From Candidatus Doudnabacteria bacterium (lineage in GTDB: Bacteria > Patescibacteriota > Doudnabacteria > UBA920 > VMFF01), in assembly GCA_963840645.1 (NCBI GenBank), contig CAWIZL010000002.1, positions 337,663 through 401,662 on the forward strand: a stretch of 64,000 nt of DNA, written 5' to 3'. The first letter of the stretch is position 1. Every line of letters begins with the position of its first letter. This document shows positions 1 through 43,513 of this stretch, piece after piece. The notes under the pieces are model-generated. The model made no database searches and was not told the DNA's origin. It saw only the letters and a program-made list of their open reading frames with translations. The translations under genes and the position numbers were made by a program.

Positions 1-766
1 TTGGAATTGATGCTGGGTTCTGGCTGGCCTGCGCTGCTGCGACAGTTGTCTGGATGTCTGCGAGAGCCTGTGCTTGGCCTGGGGCAACAGATGCTGCTGG
101 CACGAGCTGCTGCTGCGCTGCTGCGAGCTGCTCTACGCTCTGCGCGAGGCTCGAGTTGCTCTGCACTGAGGATCCAGCAGTTGCAGTAGAGCTTTTCACA
201 ACAGCCTGCACGCTGCTCACGGCCTGGCTGGTTGCGCTGTTCAGGTAGCTAATGGCAGTTGCCTTTGAAGATGAATCTGCGTTGCTAGAGAGCACTGTCT
301 GCGCATCAGCCAAACGCTCTGAGGCTATTTGAACCTGCAGCTGCGCCCTGCTCAGCGGCGTTGTGGCTAGGGCAAGCTGTGCGTTTTCGTAGCCAGCCTT
401 CAGCGTGAAGAGCGTATCGCCAGGCAGGCTCTTTGATGCGGCGTAAGCAGTGCCGCTGATGATGAACACAACAATGACAGCTGTGAACGCGTAGCCAAAC
501 GTCTTGAAAGAGTTGATGAACGCCAGCACGCCGTTCTTTGATTTCTGGTAAGCAGGGTCAAGGTAGAGCCTGCGCTTTGATGGCGCTGGCACCTGCACCT
601 TTGGCAGTGACTGCACTGCGCTCACGATGCCCAGCATTTTTACCAGTGATGCACGCTCAGCTTCTGGGTACGCTGAAGCAACCGATTCAATCGGCTGTCC
701 ACTCGAAACCCTGGCAATTGCCTCGTCGAGGGCTGCGTACTTTTTAGTTGCTTTACTTCTGAACAT
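1..766 (-). CDS. Putative anti-sigma factor / DUF5667-like membrane protein (3' part runs off window)
   Basis: Open minus-strand frame absent from the ORF track because it has no stop inside the window. ATG at 766-764 overlaps the sigma-factor stop (ATGTTCAGAAGTAA). Translation begins MFRSKATKKYAALDEAIARVSSGQPIES...PKVQVPAPSKRRL, followed by one TM helix (FGYAFTAVIVVFIISGTAYA), then PGDTLFTLKAGYENAQLAL and an Ala/Gln/Ser-rich tail. It sits directly downstream of an ECF sigma gene. Confidence 0.6.
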   Translation of the reverse strand, partial: MFRSKATKKYAALDEAIARVSSGQPIESVASAYPEAERASLVKMLGIVSAVQSLPKVQVPAPSKRRLYLDPAYQKSKNGVLAFINSFKTFGYAFTAVIVVFIISGTAYAASKSLPGDTLFTLKAGYENAQLALATTPLSRAQLQVQIASERLADAQTVLSSNADSSSKATAISYLNSATSQAVSSVQAVVKSSTATAGSSVQSNSSLAQSVEQLAAAQQQLVPAASVAPGQAQALADIQTTVAAAQASQNPASIP

Positions 767-1367
767 TGGAGTTGTTGATGTGGTCTTCTAAAAGTTGCTG
801 TAATTTTTGAATTGCCCTGTGCTGGATGACGCGGATAGAGCCTTCGCTCTTTGCCACCAGCTCTGCGATCTCTGGGTTATCTAAGTCTTCGAGGAACTTG
901 AGCTTCACAATGACCTGCTGCTCTGGTGTGAGCTGCTTGAGCAGCTGCATGAACAGCTCTTGGTTCAGCACTTGGTTTGCGTTGTTCGCAAGATCGTCTG
1001 GTGCTTCGAGAATGTTCTCGACCTCTACCAGGTCAACGGTCGCCTTGTCTTGCCTGTAGTGGTCAATGACGCGGTTTCTCGCTATCTGGTACAGCCAGCC
1101 GCCAAATGCCTCTGCTTTCACAGATGCAATCTTCTGCCAAGCTTTGACAAACACGTCTTCTGTGATGTCTTCCGCGACTTCCTTGTGGCTGACGCGGTAG
1201 AACACGAAGCGGTAGATTTTATCAAAGTAGGCATTGTAGAGCTCGCCGAAAGCGTCTTCTTCGCCACCCTTTGCCCTTAACACAATGGGCAAAAGAGAGG
1301 TATCATTGTAGTGAAGGCTTTCGAGAGCCTCTGAATTTGTTTCAGACATATATGAAGGTGCCACCAA
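753..1367 (-). CDS. RNA polymerase sigma-70 family (ECF-type) sigma factor
   Basis: 204 aa. Region 2-like segment FGELYNAYFDKIYRFVFYRV..DITEDVFVKAW and region 4 HTH NPEIAELVAKSEGSIRVIQHRAIQKL. Confidence 0.9.
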   Translation of the reverse strand: MVAPSYMSETNSEALESLHYNDTSLLPIVLRAKGGEEDAFGELYNAYFDKIYRFVFYRVSHKEVAEDITEDVFVKAWQKIASVKAEAFGGWLYQIARNRVIDHYRQDKATVDLVEVENILEAPDDLANNANQVLNQELFMQLLKQLTPEQQVIVKLKFLEDLDNPEIAELVAKSEGSIRVIQHRAIQKLQQLLEDHINNSNVQK

Positions 1368-1405
1368 TAATGACGGATTAGCTAGGGTTTTGTTACGGGT
1401 AGTCT

Positions 1406-1741
1406 ATGGTATTAAGCAGGAAATCAATGAAAAAAGCAAATCAAAAACAGGGGAGTTCGGGCAGGCTAAAGGTTCATTCTGCCAGCCACTCTTTTACGAA
1501 CCGCGTGCTCACAGTGGTTGTTGCCATTCCAAAGGGTAAAGTGCTCACGTACAAGGAGGTTGCTGATGCTGCGGGCAGCCCAGGTGCGTACCGCGCAGTT
1601 GGCACGATCATGAGCCACAATTATAACCCAAAAATCCCGTGCCATCGAGTGGTGCGTTCTGACGGCAGGCTAGGGGAGTACAACCGCGGGGCAGAGTTGA
1701 AGAGGGAGAAGCTGGTGAAGGAAGGGGCGATAGAAAAGTAA
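1406..1741 (+). CDS. Methylated-DNA-protein-cysteine methyltransferase (MGMT) family protein, DNA-binding/active-site domain only
   Basis: 111 aa with the PCHRV active-site motif (KIPCHRVVRSDGRLGEY) and the upstream YKEVA..G.P.AYRAVG helix-turn-helix segment. Confidence 0.8.
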   Translation: MVLSRKSMKKANQKQGSSGRLKVHSASHSFTNRVLTVVVAIPKGKVLTYKEVADAAGSPGAYRAVGTIMSHNYNPKIPCHRVVRSDGRLGEYNRGAELKREKLVKEGAIEK

Positions 1742-1797
1742 AAATGTAAAGAGGATCAGCTGCTAGCTGACCCTCTTGCTTGTATTGTTGCGAATGC

Positions 1798-2355
1798 CTA
1801 AATCATTTCTGTTGCAATGCCCAAGTTCATTGCTTCTGTCGCCTTGAGCGCGCGCTCTTCTATCATCATGCGTTTGATTTTGCGAGCCGGCATTTTTCCT
1901 GAGCTGTTGGAGGCCACGATCTCAGCGTAGTAATCTGTGTGTCTCTGTAGATCGGCTACTCCTTTTTTAAACTCGCTCAAATTGAGGGTGAAAGGTCTTT
2001 CGTAACTCCTGCTTACCTCGTGGATCAGAAATGCGGTGTGCGATCCGGCGATGCGTCTCTTCCCTGCCATGTAAAAGATGAGGGCAACGGAATCTACGGC
2101 ACCGAGGGCCACTGTTACCAGGGGATTTGTTTCCAGAGCTCTCACGCTGTCGTAAAAGGCGAAGCCTGCTGTGGATAGCCCACCGCAACTGTGTATGAGC
2201 AGGTGGATAGGCTGCTTGGGGTCTTCCGCCATGAGGCGAAAAAAATCTTTGGTAAGTTTTTCGGTGCTCTCGTATCCAATGTTTCCTGAGAGGTGGAGTG
2301 TTCTTGCAAGGTTCGCTGAAAAGGCCACTTTGGGTAATCCTCCTGGGTAGTGCAA
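1798..2355 (-). CDS. ClpP/S14-family serine protease-like protein (divergent)
   Basis: 185 aa that aligns by eye to the ClpP core. [22 protein letters not shown] corresponds to [32 protein letters not shown] to GQAASMGAFL, and LIHEV to MIHQP. It lies in the accessory region. Confidence 0.65.
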   Translation of the reverse strand: [185 protein letters not shown]

Positions 2356-2464
2356 ATTTTTGAACTCCTGTATTCTACTATTTTGTATTCAACTTGTCAA
2401 CTTCGCTGGAATAAAAAGAGCGCTCCGGTGTTACCGAAGCGCGTAGTGCACAAAACTGCTGTGC

Positions 2465-3004
2465 TCAGTGGGTGGCGCGTACACGTGCGCTCTCTTGTTC
2501 AATCTTTTTGACTTCCTCTAAGGCCTTCTCTGCCCACCACGTCCAGACAGACATTAGAAACGACTGCTCAATGCTATCGCTACAGCCAAAGGCACGGAAC
2601 TCTGCCCCATTCTCAGAAGTAGAATTGGGAACGAGCACGAGGTAGCACTCTCCGTGGCGCGGGCAATTAATTTGCCTGAGGCCGTAGTCTCCGAAGAGGA
2701 GAATGTTGTCTCCATTAGAAACGTTCACGCCAGCATCGTGTGCAAGGATTCTCGGATGAATCTGGCAATTTTTCATTCCCATTTTCATGGAGAGGTTGAA
2801 TGAGGCCTCCAAGAACTTACGAGAAACTCTGATTCTGATTTCGTAGACGTTGTCTTTAACTATGCAAACCCACGTAGAGACGTGCCAGTGGTGCTCCACT
2901 GGCTGCAACTTTTTCTTTTCTTGTGACAAGGTATCCTCCCTTTGATGCCAAAAGGTTAGCATGGAAAACAAGATTTGTACAGAGGGCGCTTTAGATAGCA
3001 TCAA
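2465..3004 (-). CDS. Hypothetical protein
   Basis: 179-aa ORF with no recognisable motifs. The start is uncertain. The IS left end lies 22 nt upstream of its annotated start. Confidence 0.35.
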   Translation of the reverse strand: MMLSKAPSVQILFSMLTFWHQREDTLSQEKKKLQPVEHHWHVSTWVCIVKDNVYEIRIRVSRKFLEASFNLSMKMGMKNCQIHPRILAHDAGVNVSNGDNILLFGDYGLRQINCPRHGECYLVLVPNSTSENGAEFRAFGCSDSIEQSFLMSVWTWWAEKALEEVKKIEQESARVRATH

Positions 3005-3025
3005 CTGTTACTGGGCGGTGAGCGG

Positions 3026-3052
3026 TTAGATAGCAATGCCTGTTACTGTAGC
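3026..3052. repeat. IS left inverted repeat
   Basis: 27 nt. The outer 7 nt and inner 13 nt are identical to the reverse complement of 4209-4236. Confidence 0.6.
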
Positions 3053-3057
3053 TGCAT

Positions 3058-4218
3058 ATGACCATGGCTACAATACAAGAGGTTCTGAAAGACAGGCTAG
3101 CGGACTACCTGGCCGCGGGCAGAGCAGGCAAGAAGGTGGTGCTGGATGTTCTGGGAACGACCACCCGCATGCACCGGCACGCCATCATCAGGCGGCTGAA
3201 CCAGCTGGCCACCCGTGATCCAGGCTGGGAGAAAAAACGTCCAGGGCGCAGGGAGCGGTACGGCCCGAGGGTGGCGGAAGCCCTGCACGAAATCTGGGGG
3301 CTCGCTGACCACATCTGCGCCGAGCGGCTGCACCCGCAGCTCGGCGAGTGGGTCACGGTATTGAAACGCTGCAAAGAGTGGCGCTACCCAGCCGACACGA
3401 CCGAGCTGCTGCTCTCCATGAGCCTGGGCACGGCCAAAGACAAGATCGAGGCGTTTCCGCGGCTCGCCCGTGGGAACACGGGAACCACCAAGCCGTCCGA
3501 GCTCAAGGAGCTCGTGCCCATCAGGCGCGGCCCGTGGGAGAACCCCGAGCCCGGCAAGGGCGAGGTGGACACGGTCGCCCACTGCGGCACGAGCCTCACC
3601 GGAGACTACGCGTTCACGGTGCAGTACACCGACGTGGCGACGATCTGGACGCTGCTCCGGGCGCAGTGGAACAAGGGCATGCTGGCCACCCGCGACAGCC
3701 TCGAGGCGATGCGGGAGCGGTGCCCGCTGGCCATCACGGGCTTCGACTTCGACTCGGGGAGTGAGTTCATCAACCACGAGGTCGTGCCGTGGTGCAGCAG
3801 CTTGACCCCAAAAATTACCTGCACCAGAACCAGGCCCTACAGGAAGAACGACCACGCCAGGATCGAGCAGAAGAACTACACGAACGTGCGGCACTGGGTC
3901 GGCTACCTGCGCTACGACCAACCCGGGCAGGTCGCCATTCTGAACGAGCTCTACCCGCTGCTCGAGGACTACGTCAACTTCTTCCTGCCGTCCATGAAGT
4001 GCCTGGGCAAGGAGCGGGTTGGCTCGAAGTACAAACGTGTGTACGACACGCCGCAGACCGCCTACGCCAGGGTGCTCGCGCACGAGAAAGTTCCCGAGGG
4101 CGTTAAGGCGGTGCTGAAAGCAAAGTATGCTACACTCAACCCGAAACAATTAAAGTCCAAACTGGAGCAGCTCCAGCAGCGGCTACTGTCGTCTTACCGG
4201 AAGCACCGGCTACAGTAA
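3058..4218 (+). CDS. DDE-type integrase/transposase (rve integrase core)
   Basis: 386 aa. Candidate D,D,E triad in GEVDTVAHCG, FDFDSGSEFINHEV and RPYRKNDHARIEQKNYTNVRHWVGYLRY. The N-terminal region is HTH-like. The stop codon lies inside the right IR. Confidence 0.85.
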   Translation: MTMATIQEVLKDRLADYLAAGRAGKKVVLDVLGTTTRMHRHAIIRRLNQLATRDPGWEKKRPGRRERYGPRVAEALHEIWGLADHICAERLHPQLGEWVTVLKRCKEWRYPADTTELLLSMSLGTAKDKIEAFPRLARGNTGTTKPSELKELVPIRRGPWENPEPGKGEVDTVAHCGTSLTGDYAFTVQYTDVATIWTLLRAQWNKGMLATRDSLEAMRERCPLAITGFDFDSGSEFINHEVVPWCSSLTPKITCTRTRPYRKNDHARIEQKNYTNVRHWVGYLRYDQPGQVAILNELYPLLEDYVNFFLPSMKCLGKERVGSKYKRVYDTPQTAYARVLAHEKVPEGVKAVLKAKYATLNPKQLKSKLEQLQQRLLSSYRKHRLQ

Positions 4219-4236
4219 CAGTTTCTAATTATCTAA
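4209..4236. repeat. IS right inverted repeat
   Basis: GCTACAGTAACAGTTTCTAATTATCTAA, the reverse-complement partner of 3026-3052. Confidence 0.6.
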
Positions 4237-4272
4237 TGCGGAGGGTGCAATGCTGTCTTTTTTAAAACAGTA

Positions 4273-4320
4273 ATGCCACCCCACTGCGCTTTCAGCGCAG
4301 TGGGGTGGCAAGGCATTTTT
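4273..4320. terminator. Bidirectional rho-independent terminator
   Basis: Perfect 15-bp stem GCCACCCCACTGCGC/GCGCAGTGGGGTGGC with a TTTCA loop. T-runs follow on both strands. It sits between the IS and the convergent gene 4319-5056. Confidence 0.6.
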
Positions 4321-5056
4321 AGCTTGGAAGCAGCTGTTCCTGGATGACAGAGCCTGCGCGCCAGTCTGATGCTGGCTCAGGGTAGAAGCGCAGGTCGTCG
4401 TGCCACGGCATCTGCACGAGCAGGGGATTTATCCCAAAACGCTCGCGTAGCTTTACGAATGCAGGTGTAAAAACTTTATCCGTGAGGGTCGCAAGCTCAG
4501 AGCCTGACTCGCCCCCGTGGTAGTCCTCGAACATCACGCCGTGCGCAATGAAGAGGGAGAGGTACGCCTCGTAGTACTGCTCTGCGCTCCCGAACTGTCC
4601 GTAGAAATCAGACAGGTCTTCTCTGGAGTTTGGGATTCGTGAATCGTGGAGGTGGTGGTGAAAGTCTACCAGCCTCTTGCCGCACGTCAGCGTGATCCTG
4701 TCGATTGGCTTGCCGCGCCACTTCTGGAACGGTGCCAGCTGAACAGGCTTAATGACCATGCCATTGCGACGGCCTCGCCTCACGAAGAAGCGCGGACGCA
4801 GCAAGCTCTTCTTTGGCCTTGACTCTGTGCTGAACTTGCCTGCTGTGTACTCGAGCCAGAACGGTGAAAGCTTTGCTGCGGCTGCGTATTCCGAGAACAC
4901 CGCGTCTTCGTAGCGGAAAGTTGCCACAGGTCTCCCGAATCCTGCAATCGGATGACCGGTCAAGAATAGCTGTGGAATTGCCCAGTTATTTTTTGCCCAC
5001 CAGCGCTCAATGTTTGTCCTGAGCACTTTCCGGTGGTCGAAGCTCTCGCCGTGCAC
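4319..5056 (-). CDS. Hypothetical protein
   Basis: 245-aa ORF, GC-rich, with no motif I can name. It contains a His cluster (FHHHLHD). Confidence 0.45.
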   Translation of the reverse strand: MHGESFDHRKVLRTNIERWWAKNNWAIPQLFLTGHPIAGFGRPVATFRYEDAVFSEYAAAAKLSPFWLEYTAGKFSTESRPKKSLLRPRFFVRRGRRNGMVIKPVQLAPFQKWRGKPIDRITLTCGKRLVDFHHHLHDSRIPNSREDLSDFYGQFGSAEQYYEAYLSLFIAHGVMFEDYHGGESGSELATLTDKVFTPAFVKLRERFGINPLLVQMPWHDDLRFYPEPASDWRAGSVIQEQLLPS

Positions 5057-5177
5057 TTTTTAACGGTACGTAAAAATCTGCTGTTTCCAAGTTCGTACTA
5101 CCCCCTTTGGTATGTAAACACACTTAGTATTTTGGAACAGAAGGGGGAGTGGTGTCAAGGGGTTTTGGTGGCTGGTG

Positions 5178-5681
5178 CTACTTTCCCTGCCTCACGCCCA
5201 CCAGCTGCCACGCTCTCACGAGCGCCGCGCCGAAGAGTGCTGCGAGCAGGCTGATGAGCACGTAGGTTGCAGATGCGCTAGCAGGATTTTTGATGAGCAC
5301 GATTGCGTACGCGAGCTGCACGATGTAGAGGGCAAAGATGAAGGTGAGGGTGCTGATGCTCTCTGCTGCTGCTGCTGCGCGGCTGTTGAACGGGGTCTTG
5401 CGCGCAATGTCCACGAGTGTGCTGATGCCAAAGGTGCTCATGGCGAGCGATGCCCAGGCAAGCCCTGCGCCTGGGATGAGGGCAATGAGCGACACGAAGA
5501 ACACGTTGACGAGCGCAGAGTAGCTTCCCTCTGCGAGGAGGCGCTCACGTGAGCTGAGGGTGTCTGGGGTTTTGTCGGCTGACTGCGTGATGAATGAGAG
5601 CGCGACAAAGAGCAGCCCAATGAAGGCTGAGGAGGCTGTGATTGCGGCTATGAGGAAGTTTGTGAAGGGGGAGAGGGGCAT
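5178..5681 (-). CDS. Hypothetical integral membrane protein (about 4-5 TM)
   Basis: 167 aa, strongly hydrophobic and GC-rich. The start codon and first residues (MPLSPF) are encoded by the tRNA-Ser-like repeat at 5670-5693. Confidence 0.5.
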   Translation of the reverse strand: MPLSPFTNFLIAAITASSAFIGLLFVALSFITQSADKTPDTLSSRERLLAEGSYSALVNVFFVSLIALIPGAGLAWASLAMSTFGISTLVDIARKTPFNSRAAAAAESISTLTFIFALYIVQLAYAIVLIKNPASASATYVLISLLAALFGAALVRAWQLVGVRQGK

Positions 5682-5693
5682 GGGATTCTTGAA
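5670..5693 (+). repeat. tRNA-Ser 3'-end-like fragment (putative distal att repeat)
   Basis: GGAGAGGGGcatGGGATTCtTGAA compared with the tRNA-Ser gene on the + strand, GGAGAGGGGGGGATTCGAACC (11523-11543). Same orientation. The GC-to-AT composition switch occurs immediately to its right. Confidence 0.5.
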
Positions 5694-5706
5694 TTATAGC
5701 AGGCTC

Positions 5707-6279
5707 TTATGTGAGGCCACGAAATTTGAAGAGACTTTTTTTGATTCGAGAAAATAATGATGGATGATTTGAGGCGACGAAAGGATAAAGATCGGAAAAA
5801 TCCTGAGCAACCTCAATAAACTTTTGGTGGTCTGACTTTAAATGCCAAGTAAGACCTGAAGATGTAATCTGGTCGTTGAGCAAAGAGGTGCTTATTTTAA
5901 TGCTCTCTGAATCAGGACTAAAAATGGTGCCTTTTGGTAAGTCTGAAATGAGAGTTGGCTTTACATTCTCTTGGTCTAAACCATGCTCAAAATGATCGCG
6001 CAGCTTAATTTTTTTAAAGAGAGCCGAATTTTTACCTTTAAGATTTGCAACCCGAGAATCGTATCTGGCGGCTTCTTCTATCTCTCGAAGGATGCGACGT
6101 AAAAGTACTGAATAAAAGTCCACATCGTGTACAGGACTTGCGCCAGCACTTACGGCGATTTGTTGACTAGAATATATTCGTTGTCGTTGGAGCTCTAAGC
6201 TACAAAGCTTGGATCTTATTTCATATTGAAATAGGATCCTATCAGGATTCATAATCCTCGAATTCTGTGTAGTGTTCAA
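5707..6279 (-). CDS. Hypothetical protein (last gene of island operon)
   Basis: 190-aa AT-rich ORF that starts 18 nt after the methyltransferase stop. No recognisable motifs. Confidence 0.45.
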   Translation of the reverse strand: MNTTQNSRIMNPDRILFQYEIRSKLCSLELQRQRIYSSQQIAVSAGASPVHDVDFYSVLLRRILREIEEAARYDSRVANLKGKNSALFKKIKLRDHFEHGLDQENVKPTLISDLPKGTIFSPDSESIKISTSLLNDQITSSGLTWHLKSDHQKFIEVAQDFSDLYPFVASNHPSLFSRIKKSLFKFRGLT

Positions 6280-6297
6280 TTTTTTATTTATAATTAG

Positions 6298-7542
6298 TTA
6301 TAGTAGGTTTTGTTGGTTCTGAGTCGGCTCCACTATATCCATCGTTTTCAGGTCATGTTTGTTTCTCAGCATAGCGATCAAGCAAAGTCCAATATGGTAA
6401 CTCAAATTCACAGGCACAGCATTGCCAATTTGCTTGTACTGAGAAGCTGTTGAGCCTTGAAAATTCCAGTTGTCAGGAAAGGTTTGAATACGGGCGTACT
6501 CTCTAATGGTCAGAGGTCTCGTTTCTGATGGATGACATCGTTCTGTTTGTTTTTGAGCAGGAGCACAGGTCAAAGTAAGGCTCGGTTCATCCCAAGCTAA
6601 TCTGCGAGCCATTCCCGTTTTGCCACCGCCCATATGAAAGCTCGCCTGCATGTACTCTTTCTGCAAAGCTAAAGGCAGATCTCTCCAGTAACCACCCTCT
6701 GGAATTTTATCCAGTATTTCTTTTTTTCGCTTCGGATACTTTTGACCCGGAGAATCAGGCACATTTTCGAGTGCCTCTCTGATGCTCACGGTGTAATCAT
6801 GTTCTTTCGGAAAAAGTAACGGTAGCTTTAAGTCGTTGCGGACACCTAAAATTACCAAACGCTCACGTTTCTGTGGGACATCTAAGTACTGAGACCTTAA
6901 AACTTTGTAGGCGACTTTGTATCCAAGGTCACGCAACACGTGGATGATAGTGTTTAAAGTTCTGCCATCGTCGTGGGTAAGGAGTCCTTTCACATTCTCA
7001 CCCATGAATATTTTTGGCCTTACTTGCTTAACACAGCGTGCAAGTTCGTAGAAAAGTGTACCGCGGGTATCGTCAAAGCCCATTTTTTTGCCTGCGTGAC
7101 TAAAAGCTTGGCAGGGGAATCCACCCTCAACAATATCAGCTTTCATCCTTTTGAAATCAAATTCTCTTACATTGGCTTTCTCGACATTCCAGTTCGGATG
7201 ATTCTTCTGTAATGTTGCGACTGAGTCCTTATCAATATCAAGCAGCAGTTTGTGTTTTAGGCCAGCATTTTCAAAACCAAGTGCTGTTCCACCAGCACCA
7301 GCGAAAAGCTCTATTACAGAATAATTAGTTTTTTCTTTCGATTTGAGGACTTTAAATTTTCCTTTTTGATTTACCCCAGAGATTTTATCCTGTAGTCGTT
7401 TGATTTCTGTTACGTTGAAAAGCCTATGGTTGAGGTCAGAGCGTAGGGCTTTGATTAGACCTTTTTTGTCCCAACGTCTGATGGTATCAGGAGATACCCC
7501 CACAACCTGCGAAGCCGCGTGTACGTTTAGTAGTTCTTGCAT
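6298..7542 (-). CDS. dcm: DNA (cytosine-5)-methyltransferase with N-terminal MerR-like HTH
   Basis: 414 aa. C5-MTase motifs I ELFAGAGG, IV GGFPCQAFS, VI ENV, VIII QKRERLVILG and X GNAVPV. The N-terminus VGVSPDTIRRWDKKGLIKALR is HTH-like. Confidence 0.92.
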   Translation of the reverse strand: MQELLNVHAASQVVGVSPDTIRRWDKKGLIKALRSDLNHRLFNVTEIKRLQDKISGVNQKGKFKVLKSKEKTNYSVIELFAGAGGTALGFENAGLKHKLLLDIDKDSVATLQKNHPNWNVEKANVREFDFKRMKADIVEGGFPCQAFSHAGKKMGFDDTRGTLFYELARCVKQVRPKIFMGENVKGLLTHDDGRTLNTIIHVLRDLGYKVAYKVLRSQYLDVPQKRERLVILGVRNDLKLPLLFPKEHDYTVSIREALENVPDSPGQKYPKRKKEILDKIPEGGYWRDLPLALQKEYMQASFHMGGGKTGMARRLAWDEPSLTLTCAPAQKQTERCHPSETRPLTIREYARIQTFPDNWNFQGSTASQYKQIGNAVPVNLSYHIGLCLIAMLRNKHDLKTMDIVEPTQNQQNLL

Positions 7543-7616
7543 AGATTAATTATAAATAGTACCCTTGCAGTATGCAAGGGTACTATTTAATCTGTTTTTA
7601 ATACTTCTGTGGATAA

Positions 7617-8336
7617 CTAGTAAACACGATCAAATAAATCTTTGAATGCGTTATGTTTCTTGAGCTTTAAAGATTTTTTACCCAGTACCTTCGCTAGTAT
7701 CGAAGGCAGGATGGCATAAAGTTTTTCGAGCGCATTTTTGTCTCCAGTCGCAAGTGTGTAAAAGCTTTTACCATCAATTACACGAATTGATTTATTAGCG
7801 GGACGCCTTCGGTGAGTATTATTGTCTGAGGGTTCGAATGGCTTGTCGTAGATTTTTTTATTTGGAGGAATTATTTCAACGTAGTAAGCTGTGTAACCTT
7901 TGTAAGCATTCTTAAGTTGACGTTTTAGGTCATCGTAAATTGCAATCTTGTGGTTTCCTTTGGTGGTATTATACTTATTTTTAATTTCAGCGATGATTTT
8001 CTTTTTATCATTTATGATGTCAAAGACTTTTCCAGTCCCCATATTTTGCCAACCTTTTGAAGATCCCAGGATATTTTGATGGAAATTACCGAGGGCATTT
8101 TGCAGTGTTTTCTGGTTTTGGCGAGACTTTTCCTGTTTTACCCACTCAAAGATCGGAATACCTTGCCAGAGCGCATCGAATAAGGCAGAGAATGGATCAA
8201 CTGAATTTTTATAGAATACTTTCTCATCGGCTTTAAGCGATTTTTTTGCGGTATCGACCACACTTTGAACATGATTAAAAAGGTTTTGTTTAGTTATGAA
8301 AGAAAGGCTGTCCCTTGCTCTGCTAGGTAATTTCAT
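7617..8336 (-). CDS. Type II restriction endonuclease, Eco47II-family-like
   Basis: 239 aa immediately upstream of the C5 MTase. PD-(D/E)XK-like FDIINDKKKIIAEIKNKYNT. The DPFSALFDA...QKTLQNALGNFHQNILG blocks match my memory of the Eco47II (GGNCC) family. Confidence 0.6.
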   Translation of the reverse strand: MKLPSRARDSLSFITKQNLFNHVQSVVDTAKKSLKADEKVFYKNSVDPFSALFDALWQGIPIFEWVKQEKSRQNQKTLQNALGNFHQNILGSSKGWQNMGTGKVFDIINDKKKIIAEIKNKYNTTKGNHKIAIYDDLKRQLKNAYKGYTAYYVEIIPPNKKIYDKPFEPSDNNTHRRRPANKSIRVIDGKSFYTLATGDKNALEKLYAILPSILAKVLGKKSLKLKKHNAFKDLFDRVY

Positions 8337-8358
8337 TCTTGCGATCGTTTTATTAAGT

Positions 8359-8577
8359 TTATACCTCGTACATTTTTCTCACGTATTTATTTATATAACT
8401 GTTTAAACCGAAACCTTGCTCAGCCAATGTTTTCATTTGTTCTATGTTTGAAGCACCAGCACTTCTATATGAGTACTTGTATGTTTTATGATCTCGAAAT
8501 TCCACAATAATAAAATCTGAACCTATTTGGTACTTTAGTATATTAGAGTTTCCGTCAGAATTTTTGTAGTAAGTCAT
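8359..8577 (-). CDS. KTSC domain-containing small protein
   Basis: 72 aa. LKYQIGSDFIIVEFRDHKTYKYSY...GFGLNSYINKYVRK resembles the KTSC domain pattern (..L.V.F..G..Y.Y......s.G.y.n..ir). Confidence 0.6.
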   Translation of the reverse strand: MTYYKNSDGNSNILKYQIGSDFIIVEFRDHKTYKYSYRSAGASNIEQMKTLAEQGFGLNSYINKYVRKMYEV

Positions 8578-8585
8578 CGATTTTA

Positions 8586-9998
8586 TTAATTAGCAAAGAA
8601 TTCTTTAATTGTTTGAATCTTTTCATTAAAGTCATCTAATTTATCGGCACTTTTCTTTTCACCCGACTCGTTAAAGTAGCCTTCTTTTTTTTGGAGTTGC
8701 GTTAATTTTTTGTCTCGAATATCATTTTTATTCCATTGAATGATCTTGTAATTCGGGTAATCTTTTTCTAATTCCTTAAAAATACTATCTTCTTTTGATC
8801 CTTTGTCAATTAACACTCCAACTTTTTTAAATCCCAAATCTTTTGCCATAGATAGAGCTAGCTTAAAATTATCACAGCCTCTCACGCCATAGCCGAAAAT
8901 ATGGATGGTTTTCTCATCGAATTCATTCCTCAGTAGACCCACATCTTCTTGCCCTTCCAGAAAAAGAATATTATCAACCGCGAAAAATATTTCTTTAGCT
9001 ACCTCATCGATTAAATATGGCTGCTGCCAATTTGCACCACTTATTAGTCCAGAGTACTTACTCGGATCTCCCAAGGTAAAAATTTCAGATTTGATATCAT
9101 CTATCTTTGCGATCCTGTTTAATTTTGCACCGTTTGTAATATATTCCCAATTGATAAAGTAGGGACTATGAGTAGCAATTAATACCTGTCTTTTCTCGGA
9201 AAATTCAGCTATGATTTCAAGTAAGTTTTTCTGAGCTTGTGGATGAAGTGATAATTCGGGCTCATCTATGATTAAACCGGTATTTCGATTTTCGAACAAG
9301 TGAGCAATTATTCTAATGGCTGAAATGACACCATCTCCTAAAAAATCTGTCCGATGGCGTATGCCATTGCTGGAAATATACTGGATGTATGGTTGATTTT
9401 CATGTGCAACAACCCACTTGGTAAATTCTGGTATAACTCTTTGAACTAAAGCAGTAAAAGAATCATATCTGGTCTGGTCTTTTTCAATATCTTTCAGAAT
9501 TAGAGCCGTTGCAATTTCTTGTTTATTTCTAGGGTTACCTCCAATTGCAGAATTAGCAAGTATGTTTGCAGCTGTGTCTGACCCATTAGCAGTTGCGTCC
9601 CACGTTCTTCTCGATGATATGATTTCAAAAAGCTCTGTTCTATCATTTGCATCTCGATCTGGTTGCTCTATGAAAGTGTACGATTCTGGTTTGGACAGTC
9701 GCACGCTTCTTTGAATGTTCGCGTCATCGGAATATAAGTTAAACTCTGGTGGGAGACTTTTTTTCTCGCTATCATTTAGGTGGTCATCTTTTTTTAGCCA
9801 CATCGCTTCAATTATTGTTGTTTTGCCAGTATTATTTAATCCTACAAGATAAGTAATACCAGATCCAATTTTGGAGGGTAATGGTTGAGCTAGCTCAATG
9901 CGCTGCTCATCTTCAAAGGATCGAAAATTTTTAATTGTAAACTTTTTGTAATTCATTTGGTAGTGATGCCGTTTGTTGAAGTTCTGTTCAGTATCCAC
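8586..9998 (-). CDS. OLD-family-like ABC ATPase with C-terminal TOPRIM/DUF4435-like region
   Basis: 470 aa. Walker A GLNNTGKTT, Walker B LIIDEPELSLHP, and ATHSPYFI. The C-terminal block NILFLEGQEDVGLL...KVGVLIDKG resembles the TOPRIM glutamate and acidic motifs. An alternative start is at M15 (9956). Confidence 0.75.
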   Translation of the reverse strand: MDTEQNFNKRHHYQMNYKKFTIKNFRSFEDEQRIELAQPLPSKIGSGITYLVGLNNTGKTTIIEAMWLKKDDHLNDSEKKSLPPEFNLYSDDANIQRSVRLSKPESYTFIEQPDRDANDRTELFEIISSRRTWDATANGSDTAANILANSAIGGNPRNKQEIATALILKDIEKDQTRYDSFTALVQRVIPEFTKWVVAHENQPYIQYISSNGIRHRTDFLGDGVISAIRIIAHLFENRNTGLIIDEPELSLHPQAQKNLLEIIAEFSEKRQVLIATHSPYFINWEYITNGAKLNRIAKIDDIKSEIFTLGDPSKYSGLISGANWQQPYLIDEVAKEIFFAVDNILFLEGQEDVGLLRNEFDEKTIHIFGYGVRGCDNFKLALSMAKDLGFKKVGVLIDKGSKEDSIFKELEKDYPNYKIIQWNKNDIRDKKLTQLQKKEGYFNESGEKKSADKLDDFNEKIQTIKEFFAN

Positions 9999-10030
9999 CA
10001 GGGTATTTGTGGATGCGCTATATTAAGATT

Positions 10031-11200
10031 TTATTGGCTCGGAGAAGCTTCTAGTGATTCAATTTTTGGCAGCTGAACAACACCGCTTAAGTCTCCGTAA
10101 ATTCCTACGGTATTTTTGATTACTTTCTGCATCTGTTTTTCTTTTTCAGCCCAAGATTTTTCAAAATAAAGCTTTTCTTTATCAAGAGCTAATTTCATGG
10201 ATGAAAATGTTTCAACAATAGTCTCAATTCGTTGTCTAAATTCTGTGCCAGTTAAATATGAATAAAGTAGTTCTACTTTTTCATTCTTACCGATGGACAT
10301 ACCTTTTTCTCTGGAAACAGCCTCCAGGGATTGTCTTAGGGCAATTGCGATTGATACCGCAAATTTTATATTACAAATCCAAACTCCATCGCGAAAAGAA
10401 ATGCCATTTATACCCTCAGGTAGAACGGAAGAAACAATTACTGCAATATCAGCCTTTATCGTTCTTTGATCATCTTTCAATTTTTGTATCCATCCCTCAG
10501 ACCAAGTTTTTGTCTTCTTGGATTCCCAAATAATCGTTCCGCACTCAACGCCTGTTTTAGTTTTGACGGTTTGGATTATATCAGCGCCAGTTACACCTTT
10601 TGGGACTGGTGAAATGTCATCATGGATGAACTCAAATCTCAAAAGTTCTTCAAGAATTATTTCTTGAACCTCTCCTTGGGTCTGTTGCGAACCTTGCTCA
10701 AGCTTTCTTGCAAGTTCATCTTTGGCTTTTGTTGCGTCAGAAAGTTTTTTATTTAGTTGATCAATTTCTGCCTGTTTTACGTCCGTAGCTTTTTTTGATG
10801 CCTCTTCTTCAATTTTTTGTCTTTCTGCGGCTAGTTGACGCTCCTTGTCAATCTCAAAAGTATCTTTATCGTCTTTAAGTTTTTGTTTCTCTTTTATCAG
10901 TGCAATTTCGTTTTTGCGAGCTTCCGTAAGTAGCCTTTCTTTATCGGAGAGCTGGTCTTCTAAATGCTTTCTCTCTAAAATAGACTCCTTCTCAACTTCT
11001 TCTTTAATCTGTTCCTTGTATTTACTTGATTGTTCAGCTATTTCTTTCTTGGTTTTTTCCTCAAAAACTTTTTTTATCTCAACCTCTTTTTTTATAAATT
11101 CTTGTTTGTACTTTGCTTCAAATTGATGTGACAATACATCATCGATAGAAATCGATTCACCGCAGTTAGGGCAAATAATTTTGCTAGTATCTTCTATCAT
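10031..11200 (-). CDS. DUF2130 domain protein (zinc ribbon, coiled coil, nuclease-like C-terminus)
   Basis: 389 aa. N-terminal CPNCGESI, then a ~170-aa Lys/Glu coiled coil. The C-terminal GADIIQTV..GTIIWESKKTKTWSEGWIQKLKDDQRTIKADIAVIVSSVLPEG matches my memory of DUF2130. Confidence 0.7.
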   Translation of the reverse strand: MIEDTSKIICPNCGESISIDDVLSHQFEAKYKQEFIKKEVEIKKVFEEKTKKEIAEQSSKYKEQIKEEVEKESILERKHLEDQLSDKERLLTEARKNEIALIKEKQKLKDDKDTFEIDKERQLAAERQKIEEEASKKATDVKQAEIDQLNKKLSDATKAKDELARKLEQGSQQTQGEVQEIILEELLRFEFIHDDISPVPKGVTGADIIQTVKTKTGVECGTIIWESKKTKTWSEGWIQKLKDDQRTIKADIAVIVSSVLPEGINGISFRDGVWICNIKFAVSIAIALRQSLEAVSREKGMSIGKNEKVELLYSYLTGTEFRQRIETIVETFSSMKLALDKEKLYFEKSWAEKEKQMQKVIKNTVGIYGDLSGVVQLPKIESLEASPSQ

Positions 11201-11268
11201 AGATTAAAAGCCAGTTCTCTCGAGATTTTCCTTGTTTGACGAAAGCCTATTTTTAAAGTTTGTGTATA

Positions 11269-11284
11269 GGAGAGGGGGATTTCC
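11269..11284 (+). repeat. tRNA-Ser 3'-end-like fragment (putative proximal att repeat)
   Basis: GGAGAGGGGGATTTCC compared with GGAGAGGGGGGGATTCG of the tRNA gene 236 nt away. Same orientation. The AT-to-GC switch occurs at this point. Confidence 0.55.
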
Positions 11285-11519
11285 GCGTCGCCCGCCTTCC
11301 GACTTCGCTTACGCTACGTCGGACAGGACTGGCGGCTCGTTGCCCTGGGTTGCGCCAATCTGCCACTGGCAGCTTGGCGATCGCTCGCCTGCATGGTTTC
11401 CTGCAGGAAACCATTTGCCTCGCTTCAACCCGTTCGAATCCCACACCACCTTCCCCGCATGGAAGTCTGCCGGCCACCTCGCCTGCGTGCTCGCAGTCTC
11501 GGTGACCATCAAACTTCCA
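11285..11519. other. GC-rich non-coding structured spacer (possible remnant of an integrated element or an ncRNA)
   Basis: No credible ORF. It is dense in perfect hairpins: ATGGTTTCCTGCAGGAAACCAT, CTGCCAGTGGCAG, GGCGAgcgaTCGCC and CTGCGtgctCGCAG. It also contains a tRNA-Tyr 3'-end-like fragment, GTTCGAATCCCACACCACC (11431-11449). Confidence 0.4.
11299..11327. repeat. GC-rich palindromic motif copy 1 (CCGACTTCGC..GCTACGTCGG)
   Basis: CCGACTTCGCttacGCTACGTCGGACAGG. Related copies are at 43485-43513 and, inverted, at 51229-51275. Confidence 0.45.
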
Positions 11520-11611
11520 TGGCGGAGAGGGGGGGATTCGAACCCCCGAAAGGTTTTGACACCTTTACCGGTTTAGCAAACCAGCGCACTAGGCCTCTAT
11601 GCGACCTCTCC
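11520..11611 (-). tRNA. tRNA-Ser(GCU), CCA encoded
   Basis: The minus strand folds as acceptor GGAGAGG, 3-bp D stem, anticodon stem CTGGT/ACCGG with loop TTGCTAA (anticodon GCT), long variable arm AAAGG..CCTTT, T arm GGGGG-TTCGAAT-CCCCC, then CCTCTCC-G-CCA. Confidence 0.92.
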
Positions 11612-43194: not shown

Positions 43195-43479
43195 GGGTGG
43201 TTAGCGAAGTAGACAAACGCAGCTGACTGTAGGCATTGCAGCTCTTGTGGGAAACTACAGGATGAACTTTCCGGGATAACGGTGAACGCTAAAGCCGCAA
43301 GGCCATGCCAATACCGTGGGAACTCCTGAATTGCAGGGGAGCGCCGTAGAGACTAGATACCGGGGCACCTAACGCGAAAGCTACGGTGAAGATATAGTCC
43401 ATGCCTTACGGAAACGTGGGGAGTCAGTGAAATCAGCCGCCCTGTGCCTTCGTAGGTGCAAATCCTACACCACCCACCA
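43195..43479 (+). tRNA. tRNA-Tyr(GUA) interrupted by a group I intron in the anticodon loop
   Basis: The exons give GGGTGGT-TA-GCG..CGC-A-GCTGA-CTGT|AAA-TCAGC, a long variable arm, GTAGG-TGCAAAT-CCTAC, then ACCACCC-A-CCA. This is the same architecture as E. coli tRNA-Tyr (GCAGA-CTGTAAA-TCTGC, A73). Confidence 0.8.
43231..43429 (+). ncRNA. Group I intron (IC3-like, ~199 nt, no ORF)
   Basis: The core CCGTAGAGACTAGATACCGGGGCACCTAACGCGAAAGCTACGG...GAAGATATAGTCC closely resembles the catalytic cores of the Azoarcus and cyanobacterial tRNA introns. The 5' exon ends in U, the intron ends in G, and the IGS ATT-GCAG can pair with the exon sequences CUGU and AA. Confidence 0.8.
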
Positions 43480-43484
43480 GCCTC

Positions 43485-43513
43485 CCGACTTCGCCAAGGC
43501 TACGTCGGGCAGG
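43485..43513. repeat. GC-rich palindromic motif copy 2
   Basis: CCGACTTCGCcaagGCTACGTCGGGCAGG, 5 nt after the tRNA-Tyr CCA. Confidence 0.45.

Follow-up and report, generated by a model that had tools for sequence, protein, structure and literature searches.

In Dehalococcoides, low-GC islands are arranged in tandem at ssrA, with 20-bp repeats of its 3' end; a large serine recombinase integrates them, and 15 islands without an integration module were read as possibly cis-mobilizable or fixed (McMurdie et al. 2011, PMC3146451). Cis-mobilizable elements (CIMEs) arise when an integrative element loses its recombination and transfer modules (ICEberg 2.0; reviews of integrative mobilizable elements; PMC3146451). 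Here we describe a comparable locus in a 64,000-nt stretch of contig CAWIZL010000002.1 (the window) from a Candidatus Doudnabacteria bacterium (assembly GCA_963840645.1), in which a 5.6-kb AT-rich block of six genes at 5694-11268, which we call the islet, lies beside a transfer RNA (tRNA) gene, tRNA-Ser(GCU). This block is best read as an integrative islet that carries defence genes and is either decayed or trans-dependent (CIME-like), and we consider it probable that it was acquired horizontally and placed at tRNA-Ser(GCU) by a site-specific recombinase.

Like the ssrA islands, the islet is low in GC, lies downstream of a tRNA-like gene, has serial cores that repeat the 3' end of that gene, and, like many of them, is missing an integration module. 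It differs from them in its target, tRNA-Ser(GCU), in its host, a member of the Patescibacteria, and in its cargo, which consists of restriction-modification (R-M) and other defence genes rather than dehalogenases; its cores are also far more decayed, and no recombinase-bearing member was found at the same tRNA. Four of the five features by which tRNA-integrated islands are recognised are present here (adjacency to a tRNA, a distal repeat, odd composition, and absence or replacement in relatives), the fifth, an integrase, being absent. Like a CIME, the islet has attachment (att)-like flanks, lacks genes for an integrase, an excisionase or transfer, and has an accretion-like layout beside the primary att site, the evidence for att sites being a 9-mer and gapped matches only. 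Unlike a CIME, it has att copies that are possibly too degenerate to function, and a parallel islet on an unrelated contig (L116, described below), which has perfect copies, is the better CIME candidate.

Composition, repeats and synteny at tRNA-Ser(GCU)

The original prediction, made from the sequence alone, held that base composition flips at 5694 and 11268 between an AT-rich block and GC-rich flanks in the mid to high 50s. Computation bore this out: the GC content is 37.5% in the block, 52.6% in the remaining window and 55-62% in the immediate flanks, and the maximum-likelihood change points of a two-state model fall at 5685 and 11269, which essentially match the predicted positions. A GC and tetranucleotide profile had been proposed as a check; the discontinuity appears in the computed GC change points, and the islet is the top tetranucleotide outlier within the window. 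GC content at third codon positions (GC3) is 0.28-0.41 in the six islet genes and 0.56-0.75 in the neighbouring genes. On the tRNA side, the AT-rich DNA begins 251 nt from the 3' end of tRNA-Ser, with a 235-nt spacer in between. On the other side, a Logan contig from another, independent sample has the same gene order (ATPase, orf72, R-M, orf190, membrane protein) across the distal junction. The break in composition and the repeats agree to a few bases, which is a line of support for site-specific insertion.

ARAGORN and Rfam agree on the tRNA-Ser(GCU) gene at the place where it had been predicted, and the two partial copies of its 3' end that had been noticed in the same orientation, at 11269-11284 and 5670-5693, were reproduced as gapped matches. 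We refer to the tRNA end as copy A and to the copies at the two edges of the islet as copies B and C (Table 1). All three contain the 9-mer GGAGAGGGG. This 9-mer occurs exactly three times in the 64 kb, both strands combined, at 5670, 11269 and 11524, each time on the plus strand. Chance would give 0.25 occurrences, and none of 100 shuffles reached three. The alignment of the tRNA to copy C, GGnGGAGAGGGG---GGGATTC--GAA, was beaten by none of 500 shuffles, and no non-tRNA sequence in the window matches the tRNA-Ser 3' end better than copy C; for the alignment of the tRNA to copy B, p is ~0.016. Copies B and C are in addition alike over 26 nt (AAGTTTGTG-N4/5-GGAGAGGGG-nAT; p ~0.004), which is longer than the likeness of either to the tRNA. 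A second 9-mer, GGAAGTTTG, found beside the tRNA, was considered as part of the repeat and dropped, since its orientation is opposite to that in B and C; it lies within a 65-nt hairpin beside the tRNA and in coding sequence at C, possibly by chance.

Among named sequences, GatA is matched best by entries for Candidatus Doudnabacteria and "Patescibacteria group". Two syntenic relatives, contigs L125 and L128, were recovered through GatA (78% and 72% identical, respectively). Starting at the tRNA and ComF and going rightwards, both are collinear with the window over >20 kb, the synteny in L125 taking in tRNA-Ser, ComF, ClpC, RecX, M48, LemA, GatCAB and beyond. The tRNA-Ser gene of L125 (92 nt) is 100% identical to that of the window, and similarity ends exactly at its 3' terminus. 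Past the tRNA, L125 has AT-rich DNA (32-40% GC) with an EcoRI-like methylase and a GmrSD/HNH gene, and L128 has a GGACT-family gene and unrelated genes, with no R-M genes among them. Neither relative has any similarity to window positions 1-11519 in the 2-3.6 kb available from them. A scan of genome contigs with ComF returned only distant relatives (<=46% identity), which are without synteny. Thus the comparison with related genomes that the original prediction had suggested found the islet block absent from two syntenic relatives. Relatives carrying the same block in the same place without the repeats, which would have spoken for an ancestral region, were not seen, and this goes in favour of insertion. 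Because the syntenic relatives are without the block and homology ends at the tRNA 3' end, the block is not ancestral. By the gene content of these loci, synteny breaks at the tRNA-Ser 3' end, and what lies there varies and is rich in defence genes.

Gene content and the predicted GGNCC system

As had been predicted, the six genes of the islet are co-oriented and separated by short gaps (8-74 nt). All lie on the minus strand, with gaps of 32, 8, 22, 74 and 18 nt, and searches with Pfam, NCBIfam, PADLOC and PHROGs agree with the prediction that no integrase or recombinase open reading frame (ORF) lies between the repeats. To judge by its genes, the islet would function in defence, encoding a GGNCC Type II R-M system, an OLD/AbiL-like ATPase with a small partner, and an R-M-associated DUF2130 protein.

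Table 1. The islet, its edges and the adjoining genes. Positions are those of the window.
Feature	Position	Strand	Description
Membrane protein gene	5178-5681	-	167 aa; GC 59.7%; flank, outside the islet; homologues in Patescibacteria and other phyla
Copy C, distal edge	5656-5693	+	AAGTTTGTGAAGGGGGAGAGGGGCATGGGATTCTTGAA; 9-mer at 5670-5678
orf190, last islet gene	5707-6279	-	190-aa frame, likely start M10 (181 aa); no family match
C5 cytosine DNA methyltransferase	6298-7542	-	N-terminal MerR-type helix-turn-helix (HTH); Pfam DNA_methylase PF00145 (1.8e-82), MerR, MerR_1; PADLOC MTase_II
Perfect 17-bp inverted repeat	7553-7589		loop of 3 nt; 10 nt 5' of the methyltransferase start codon; abuts TATAAT
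Eco47II-family Type II restriction endonuclease	7617-8336	-	PF09553, E = 2.8e-58; PADLOC REase_II
orf72	8359-8577	-	72 aa; 8 nt downstream of the ATPase gene; no Pfam match
ABC-type (AAA_15/AAA_21) ATPase	8586-9998	-	470 aa; Pfam; PADLOC models AriA, Old, AbiLi, PtuA, GajA
DUF2130 protein	10031-11200	-	389 aa; PF09903, E = 1.6e-60
Copy B, tRNA-proximal edge of the AT-rich islet	11255-11284	+	AAGTTTGTGTATAGGAGAGGGGGATTTCC; 9-mer at 11269-11277
Structured spacer	11285-11519		235 nt; GC 62.5%; between tRNA and AT-rich DNA; folds with z = -5.6 (minus strand)
Copy A, tRNA 3' end, proximal att-like core	11524-11544	+	GGAGAGGGGGGGATTCGAACC
tRNA-Ser(GCU)	11520-11611	-	intact, 92 nt; ARAGORN; Rfam 52.3 bits

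The restriction site of the Eco47II-family enzyme is predicted to be GGNCC. The restriction (R) and methyltransferase (M) genes, which are separated by the 74-nt gap, are co-oriented with R first. The palindrome in that gap is probably an operator for the methyltransferase HTH or an R/M attenuator, and the pair is apparently autoregulated through this HTH and the 17-bp palindrome. Presumably the regulation resembles the SsoII/EcoRII type, in which an HTH-fused C5 methyltransferase regulates itself. Like Eco47II systems, the pair combines an RE_Eco47II endonuclease with a C5 methyltransferase that has an N-terminal HTH, has a palindrome over the methyltransferase promoter region, and resides in a host that avoids GGNCC. 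Unlike Eco47II/SsoII-type systems, its HTH is of the MerR type and its two genes are arranged as just described; its specificity and regulation are predictions.

We compared the frequency of GGNCC inside and outside the islet. In host DNA (1-5693 and 11285-64000), 31 sites are observed and 102.7 are expected under a Markov model, an under-representation of ~3.3-fold, and the islet itself has none where 5.6 are expected. The control palindromes GCNGC, CGNCG and CCNGG occur at expectation in host DNA. The ratio of observed to expected GGNCC is 0.30 in the host DNA of the window, 0.62-0.63 in the relatives L125 and L128, and ~0.9 in unrelated contigs. This avoidance, and the fact that it is weaker in the relatives without the islet, fit, from base counts, an Eco47II-type R-M system that is resident and probably active, and argue against a chimera.

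The DUF2130 protein consists of an N-terminal zinc ribbon, a coiled coil and the DUF2130 domain, a domain listed in a survey of the PD-(D/E)XK superfamily (PMC3424549). Many homologues at 65-82% identity are found in Patescibacteria, either inside Type I R-M operons (L114, L115, L119, L120, L121) or beside Type II R-M genes (L116, L122). In the Type I operons of these Patescibacteria contigs the gene stands between hsdM and hsdS, which suggests that DUF2130 proteins are an accessory component of R-M systems. We also considered DUF2130 as a recombinase; this is unlikely, as close homologues occur in Type I R-M operons without tRNAs or repeats.

The ATPase covers the OLD and Eco8 models only in part (residues 236-359). 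Its sole relative found in JGI metagenome contigs is 51% identical (L113, 9896-11416), and the gene for that relative starts 55 nt after the 3' end of tRNA-Pro(CGG); no flanking repeats were detected there. For the 72-aa protein, PHROGs gives a match to a domain of two families whose function is unknown or structural, and no known partner (AriB/AbiLii) was matched with Pfam, PADLOC or PHROGs. The product of orf190 (GC3 0.335) has a small family around it, with 49 representatives that mostly stand alone and are 150-180 aa long; it is neither a recombinase fragment nor an integrase remnant. Compared with plasmids and phages, the islet DNA gave only distant methyltransferase and endonuclease matches (65-73% identity) and no matching element.

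Parallel islets and the spacer

A closely similar arrangement is found on contig L116, which is unrelated to the window and comes from a host of ~53% GC. There, a 150-nt spacer separates tRNA-Ser(GCU) from an islet of ~4.7 kb with 36-42% GC, whose genes encode a probable restriction endonuclease, a C5 methyltransferase, a LexA-like protein, orf67, and a DUF2130 protein 75% identical to that of the window. The terminal 23-mer of the L116 tRNA occurs three times as a direct repeat: once in the tRNA itself (100%), once 150 nt further downstream (91%), and once where the islet ends on the far side (100%). As in the window, there is no integrase in the islet. The two loci thus have one layout in common, namely a tRNA core, a short spacer, a core, an AT-rich islet with R-M and DUF2130 genes, and a further core. 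Both spacers also contain an inverted copy, which in L116 is a copy of the core and in the window a copy of a T-loop 11-mer. With its intact repeats, L116 is a good candidate for a CIME-like element that may currently be mobilisable.

Other features of L116, recorded for 6686-6881 and 11385-11563, may be noted. They include a 177-nt direct repeat, 99% identical, and the inverted core copy in the 150-nt spacer is split by a 26-nt palindrome. That palindrome was not found in viral contigs, and the L116 tRNA core gave >120 non-specific matches.

Recombinases are present in islets related to these. L122 contains an orf67-DUF2130 module with 81% DNA identity to that of L116, together with a 517-aa large serine recombinase directly beside tRNA-Glu, at the edge of an AT-rich islet. 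In L120 and L121, a related recombinase stands beside a Type I system that includes DUF2130. Islets that combine DUF2130 or orf67 with large serine recombinases sit at tRNA-Glu or at other sites, and the att-proximal edge of the window islet is without the large serine recombinase that is present in L120, L121 and L122. In the ssrA islands the crossover region lies in the T-loop and the integrase of intact relatives is a large serine recombinase, to which those of L122 and L120 may be compared. The end of tRNA-Ser is itself used by integrases: a 27-mer of the window's tRNA-Ser adjoins tyrosine integrases in nine of nine tested IMG/VR contigs and a large serine recombinase in one further contig. 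These occurrences are often at contig ends, and the elements have no cargo in common with the islet.

Composition and repeats, the syntenic relatives and the L116 parallel together support the site-specific insertion at the tRNA-Ser 3' end that had been claimed at the outset. In the history we favour, a recombinase whose attachment site mimicked the 3' end of tRNA-Ser(GCU) would have inserted the islet at this hotspot. The recombinase gene would later have been lost, or the islet would always have been moved in trans, as in a CIME, and the att cores would then have decayed to a 9-mer plus partial matches. The mechanism and class of the recombinase, the order of these events and the activity of the encoded systems are what we infer from the observations above. 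Because the att cores have decayed, the islet is probably fixed now. We also entertain, as a doubtful extension, that Patescibacteria could have a family of R-M/DUF2130 cassettes without integrases, with the window islet and L116 among its members, laid out as tRNA-Ser core, short structured spacer with inverted core copy, core, cargo and core, and moved in trans by the large serine recombinases of sister elements.

The spacer of the window folds far better than shuffled sequence and forms a 65-nt hairpin directly after the tRNA. There are exactly two instances of the T-loop/T-stem 11-mer GTTCGAATCCC in the window, one in the tRNA and the other the inverted copy in the spacer (11432-11442), and a perfect 22-nt palindrome, ATGGTTTCCTGCAGGAAACCAT, lies in the spacer at 11393-11414. 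We tried the spacer as a known RNA and set this aside, since the Rfam matches are sub-threshold and overlap the tRNA. No integrase remnant was found in it by blastx or tblastn.

Parts of the spacer recall a second locus in the window. The hairpin motif CCGACTTCGCnnAnGCTACGTCGG is found in the spacer at 11297-11324 and again at 43483-43510. Both copies lie on one strand and agree at 85% over 34 nt; conceivably the motif is a genome-specific terminator, a processing element or a repeat. The second copy comes just after a probable tRNA gene at 43195-43479 (plus strand), whose anticodon region reads GTA (possibly tRNA-Tyr) and which is interrupted by a group I intron (Rfam Intron_gpI match at 43220-43421, 37.9 bits, E = 9e-8, below the gathering score). 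The 5' acceptor strand of this gene, GGGTGGT, lies near 43195, and a tRNA-like 3' end, GTAGGTGCAAATCCTACACCACCCACCA, ends at 43479; ARAGORN missed the gene. A fragment of the spacer plus strand, GTTCGAATCCCACACCACCTTCC, resembles the 3' end of this intron-containing tRNA.

Alternative histories and significance

Several observations weigh against integration by a site-specific recombinase at the tRNA. First, the repeats are short and gapped, amounting to a 9-mer plus partial matches, and the score of copy C alone is within the range of the best chance matches that the 3' ends of other tRNAs have in the window. The significance of copy C comes from its position and the common 9-mer, not from its alignment score. 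Second, copies B and C have nine further bases in common, AAGTTTGTG, which the tRNA copy has only in inverted form, and a simple primary-site model does not predict this. Third, no empty site with the same left flank (1-5681) was found, the relatives being non-syntenic there in the 2-3.6 kb available. Fourth, none of the six proteins has a recombinase domain in the databases searched, and neither the islet nor the spacer holds a remnant of one.

A further point against this reading concerns the membrane protein gene at the distal edge, whose start codon and codons 2-9 (ATG-CCC-CTC-TCC) are overlapped by copy C. The coding half of copy C looks native rather than like a displaced tRNA end, because the protein begins MPLSPF and its closest homologues (42% and 41% identity), whose loci are free of tRNA genes for 10 kb around, start with MPLDPF and MNLAPF. 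These homologues are non-syntenic, and there is no empty site among them. Hence the statement in the original prediction that the distal repeat provides the start of this gene holds as far as the overlap with the ATG and first codons goes; a donation of these codons probably does not, as they look native and the N-terminus is conserved. Within copy C, the element-derived part is likely to be the T-loop-like TTCAAGAATCCC alone, which precedes the ATG. The likeness between the sequence upstream of the membrane gene and that of a homologue, L080 (TGCTATAATTCAAGAA and TGCTATACTTTAAGAA, respectively), was examined as a means of fixing this boundary; it is suggestive, and does not fix it because the extended -10 consensus explains most of the likeness.

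The native-like coding half of C and the additional AAGTTTGTG in B and C would both fit a crossover at a pseudo-att site. It is possible, if clearly less probable than the reading given at the outset, that the islet did not arrive by tandem accretion and was instead a nested insertion into a secondary pseudo-att site at the start of the membrane gene. In that case the membrane gene, with orf245 and a DDE gene, would formerly have adjoined the GC-rich spacer, and the whole may have been an older GC-rich segment at the tRNA. Consistent with this, the GC content of the spacer matches that of the left-flank genes (56-63%) and not the 52.6% of the window outside the islet, the spacer hairpin motif CCGACTTCGCnnAnGCTACGTCGG is also present elsewhere in the genome, and the MPLSPF N-terminus is conserved. 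Moreover, one crossover immediately 5' of the ATG would leave attP TTCAAGAATCCC before the native ATGCCCCTCTCC at C, and a core beside the spacer at B, as is seen. Set against these points are L116, where true accretion (core, spacer, core, islet, core) is found at the same tRNA species, and the spacer itself, which is missing from both syntenic relatives; the pseudo-attB is also a reconstruction without an empty site for comparison. Tandem accretion, as originally predicted, fits in that the layout is that of L116; within the window it is inseparable from nested insertion for want of an empty site whose left flank matches.

The genes of the left flank include those for the membrane protein, orf245, ClpP and a sigma factor. 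The left flank also contains an ORF of 386 aa at 3058-4218 (plus strand; 62.9% GC, GC3 0.85), a second foreign gene of distinct composition, 1.5 kb from the islet. It has a weak match to IS481-type DDE transposases (NCBIfam, E = 8.5e-4) and no Pfam match, and a protein >=90% identical to it is encoded on another contig (523,761 bp).

We consider it unlikely that the islet arrived independently of any recombinase, whether by illegitimate or microhomology-mediated insertion with target duplication or by a homologous swap at a defence hotspot, the likeness to the tRNA being incidental. Furuta et al. (2010, PMC2853133) document R-M units that have direct repeats or target duplications but no mobility gene, and the islet resembles these units in that R-M genes lie within direct repeats, in that one unit lies in a tRNA gene, and in that different R-M systems are alleles at one locus among related genomes (PMC2853133). 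The 26-nt likeness of B and C, which includes gene-coding bases, and the different R-M cargo of L125 at the same locus, as expected for allelic replacement, would also suit such an origin. However, the common 9-mer is identical to the end of the adjacent tRNA and occurs nowhere else in the 64 kb, the pattern is repeated in L116 with unambiguous 23-nt copies of the tRNA end, related islets have serine recombinases next to tRNAs, and no common left flank is visible for homologous exchange. Unlike the islet, the documented unit in a tRNA gene had an integrase homologue, and the repeats of the islet match a tRNA end rather than forming a long target duplication.

Finally, although the contig is assembled from a metagenome and the repeats are short, we regard it as highly improbable that there was no insertion at all and that the block is an ancestral low-GC region or an assembly or binning chimera at G-rich repeats, given the syntenic relatives without the block, GC3 values ~30 points apart from those of the neighbours, the contig from another sample with the same gene order from the ATPase through to the membrane gene, the depletion in the host of the predicted site of the islet's own restriction enzyme, and 9-nt repeats that should be too short for assembler joins.

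Returning to the reading of a decayed or trans-dependent integrative islet, its biological interest is modest in one respect, as integrase-less, att-flanked islands beside tRNA and transfer-messenger RNA genes are well described. For annotation, the analysis flags a GGNCC R-M system that is probably active, in a host that avoids the site ~3-fold. The locus documents, with comparative support, the 3' end of tRNA-Ser(GCU) as a variable defence-gene hotspot in a Doudnabacteria-like lineage of the Patescibacteria, at which small R-M islets can persist without an integrase of their own. The recurrence of the same layout in the unrelated contig L116 hints at trans-mobilised cassettes in bacteria of the candidate phyla radiation. 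If this is true, it would represent a CIME-like shuttle of defence genes in tiny-genome bacteria with few recognised mobile elements.

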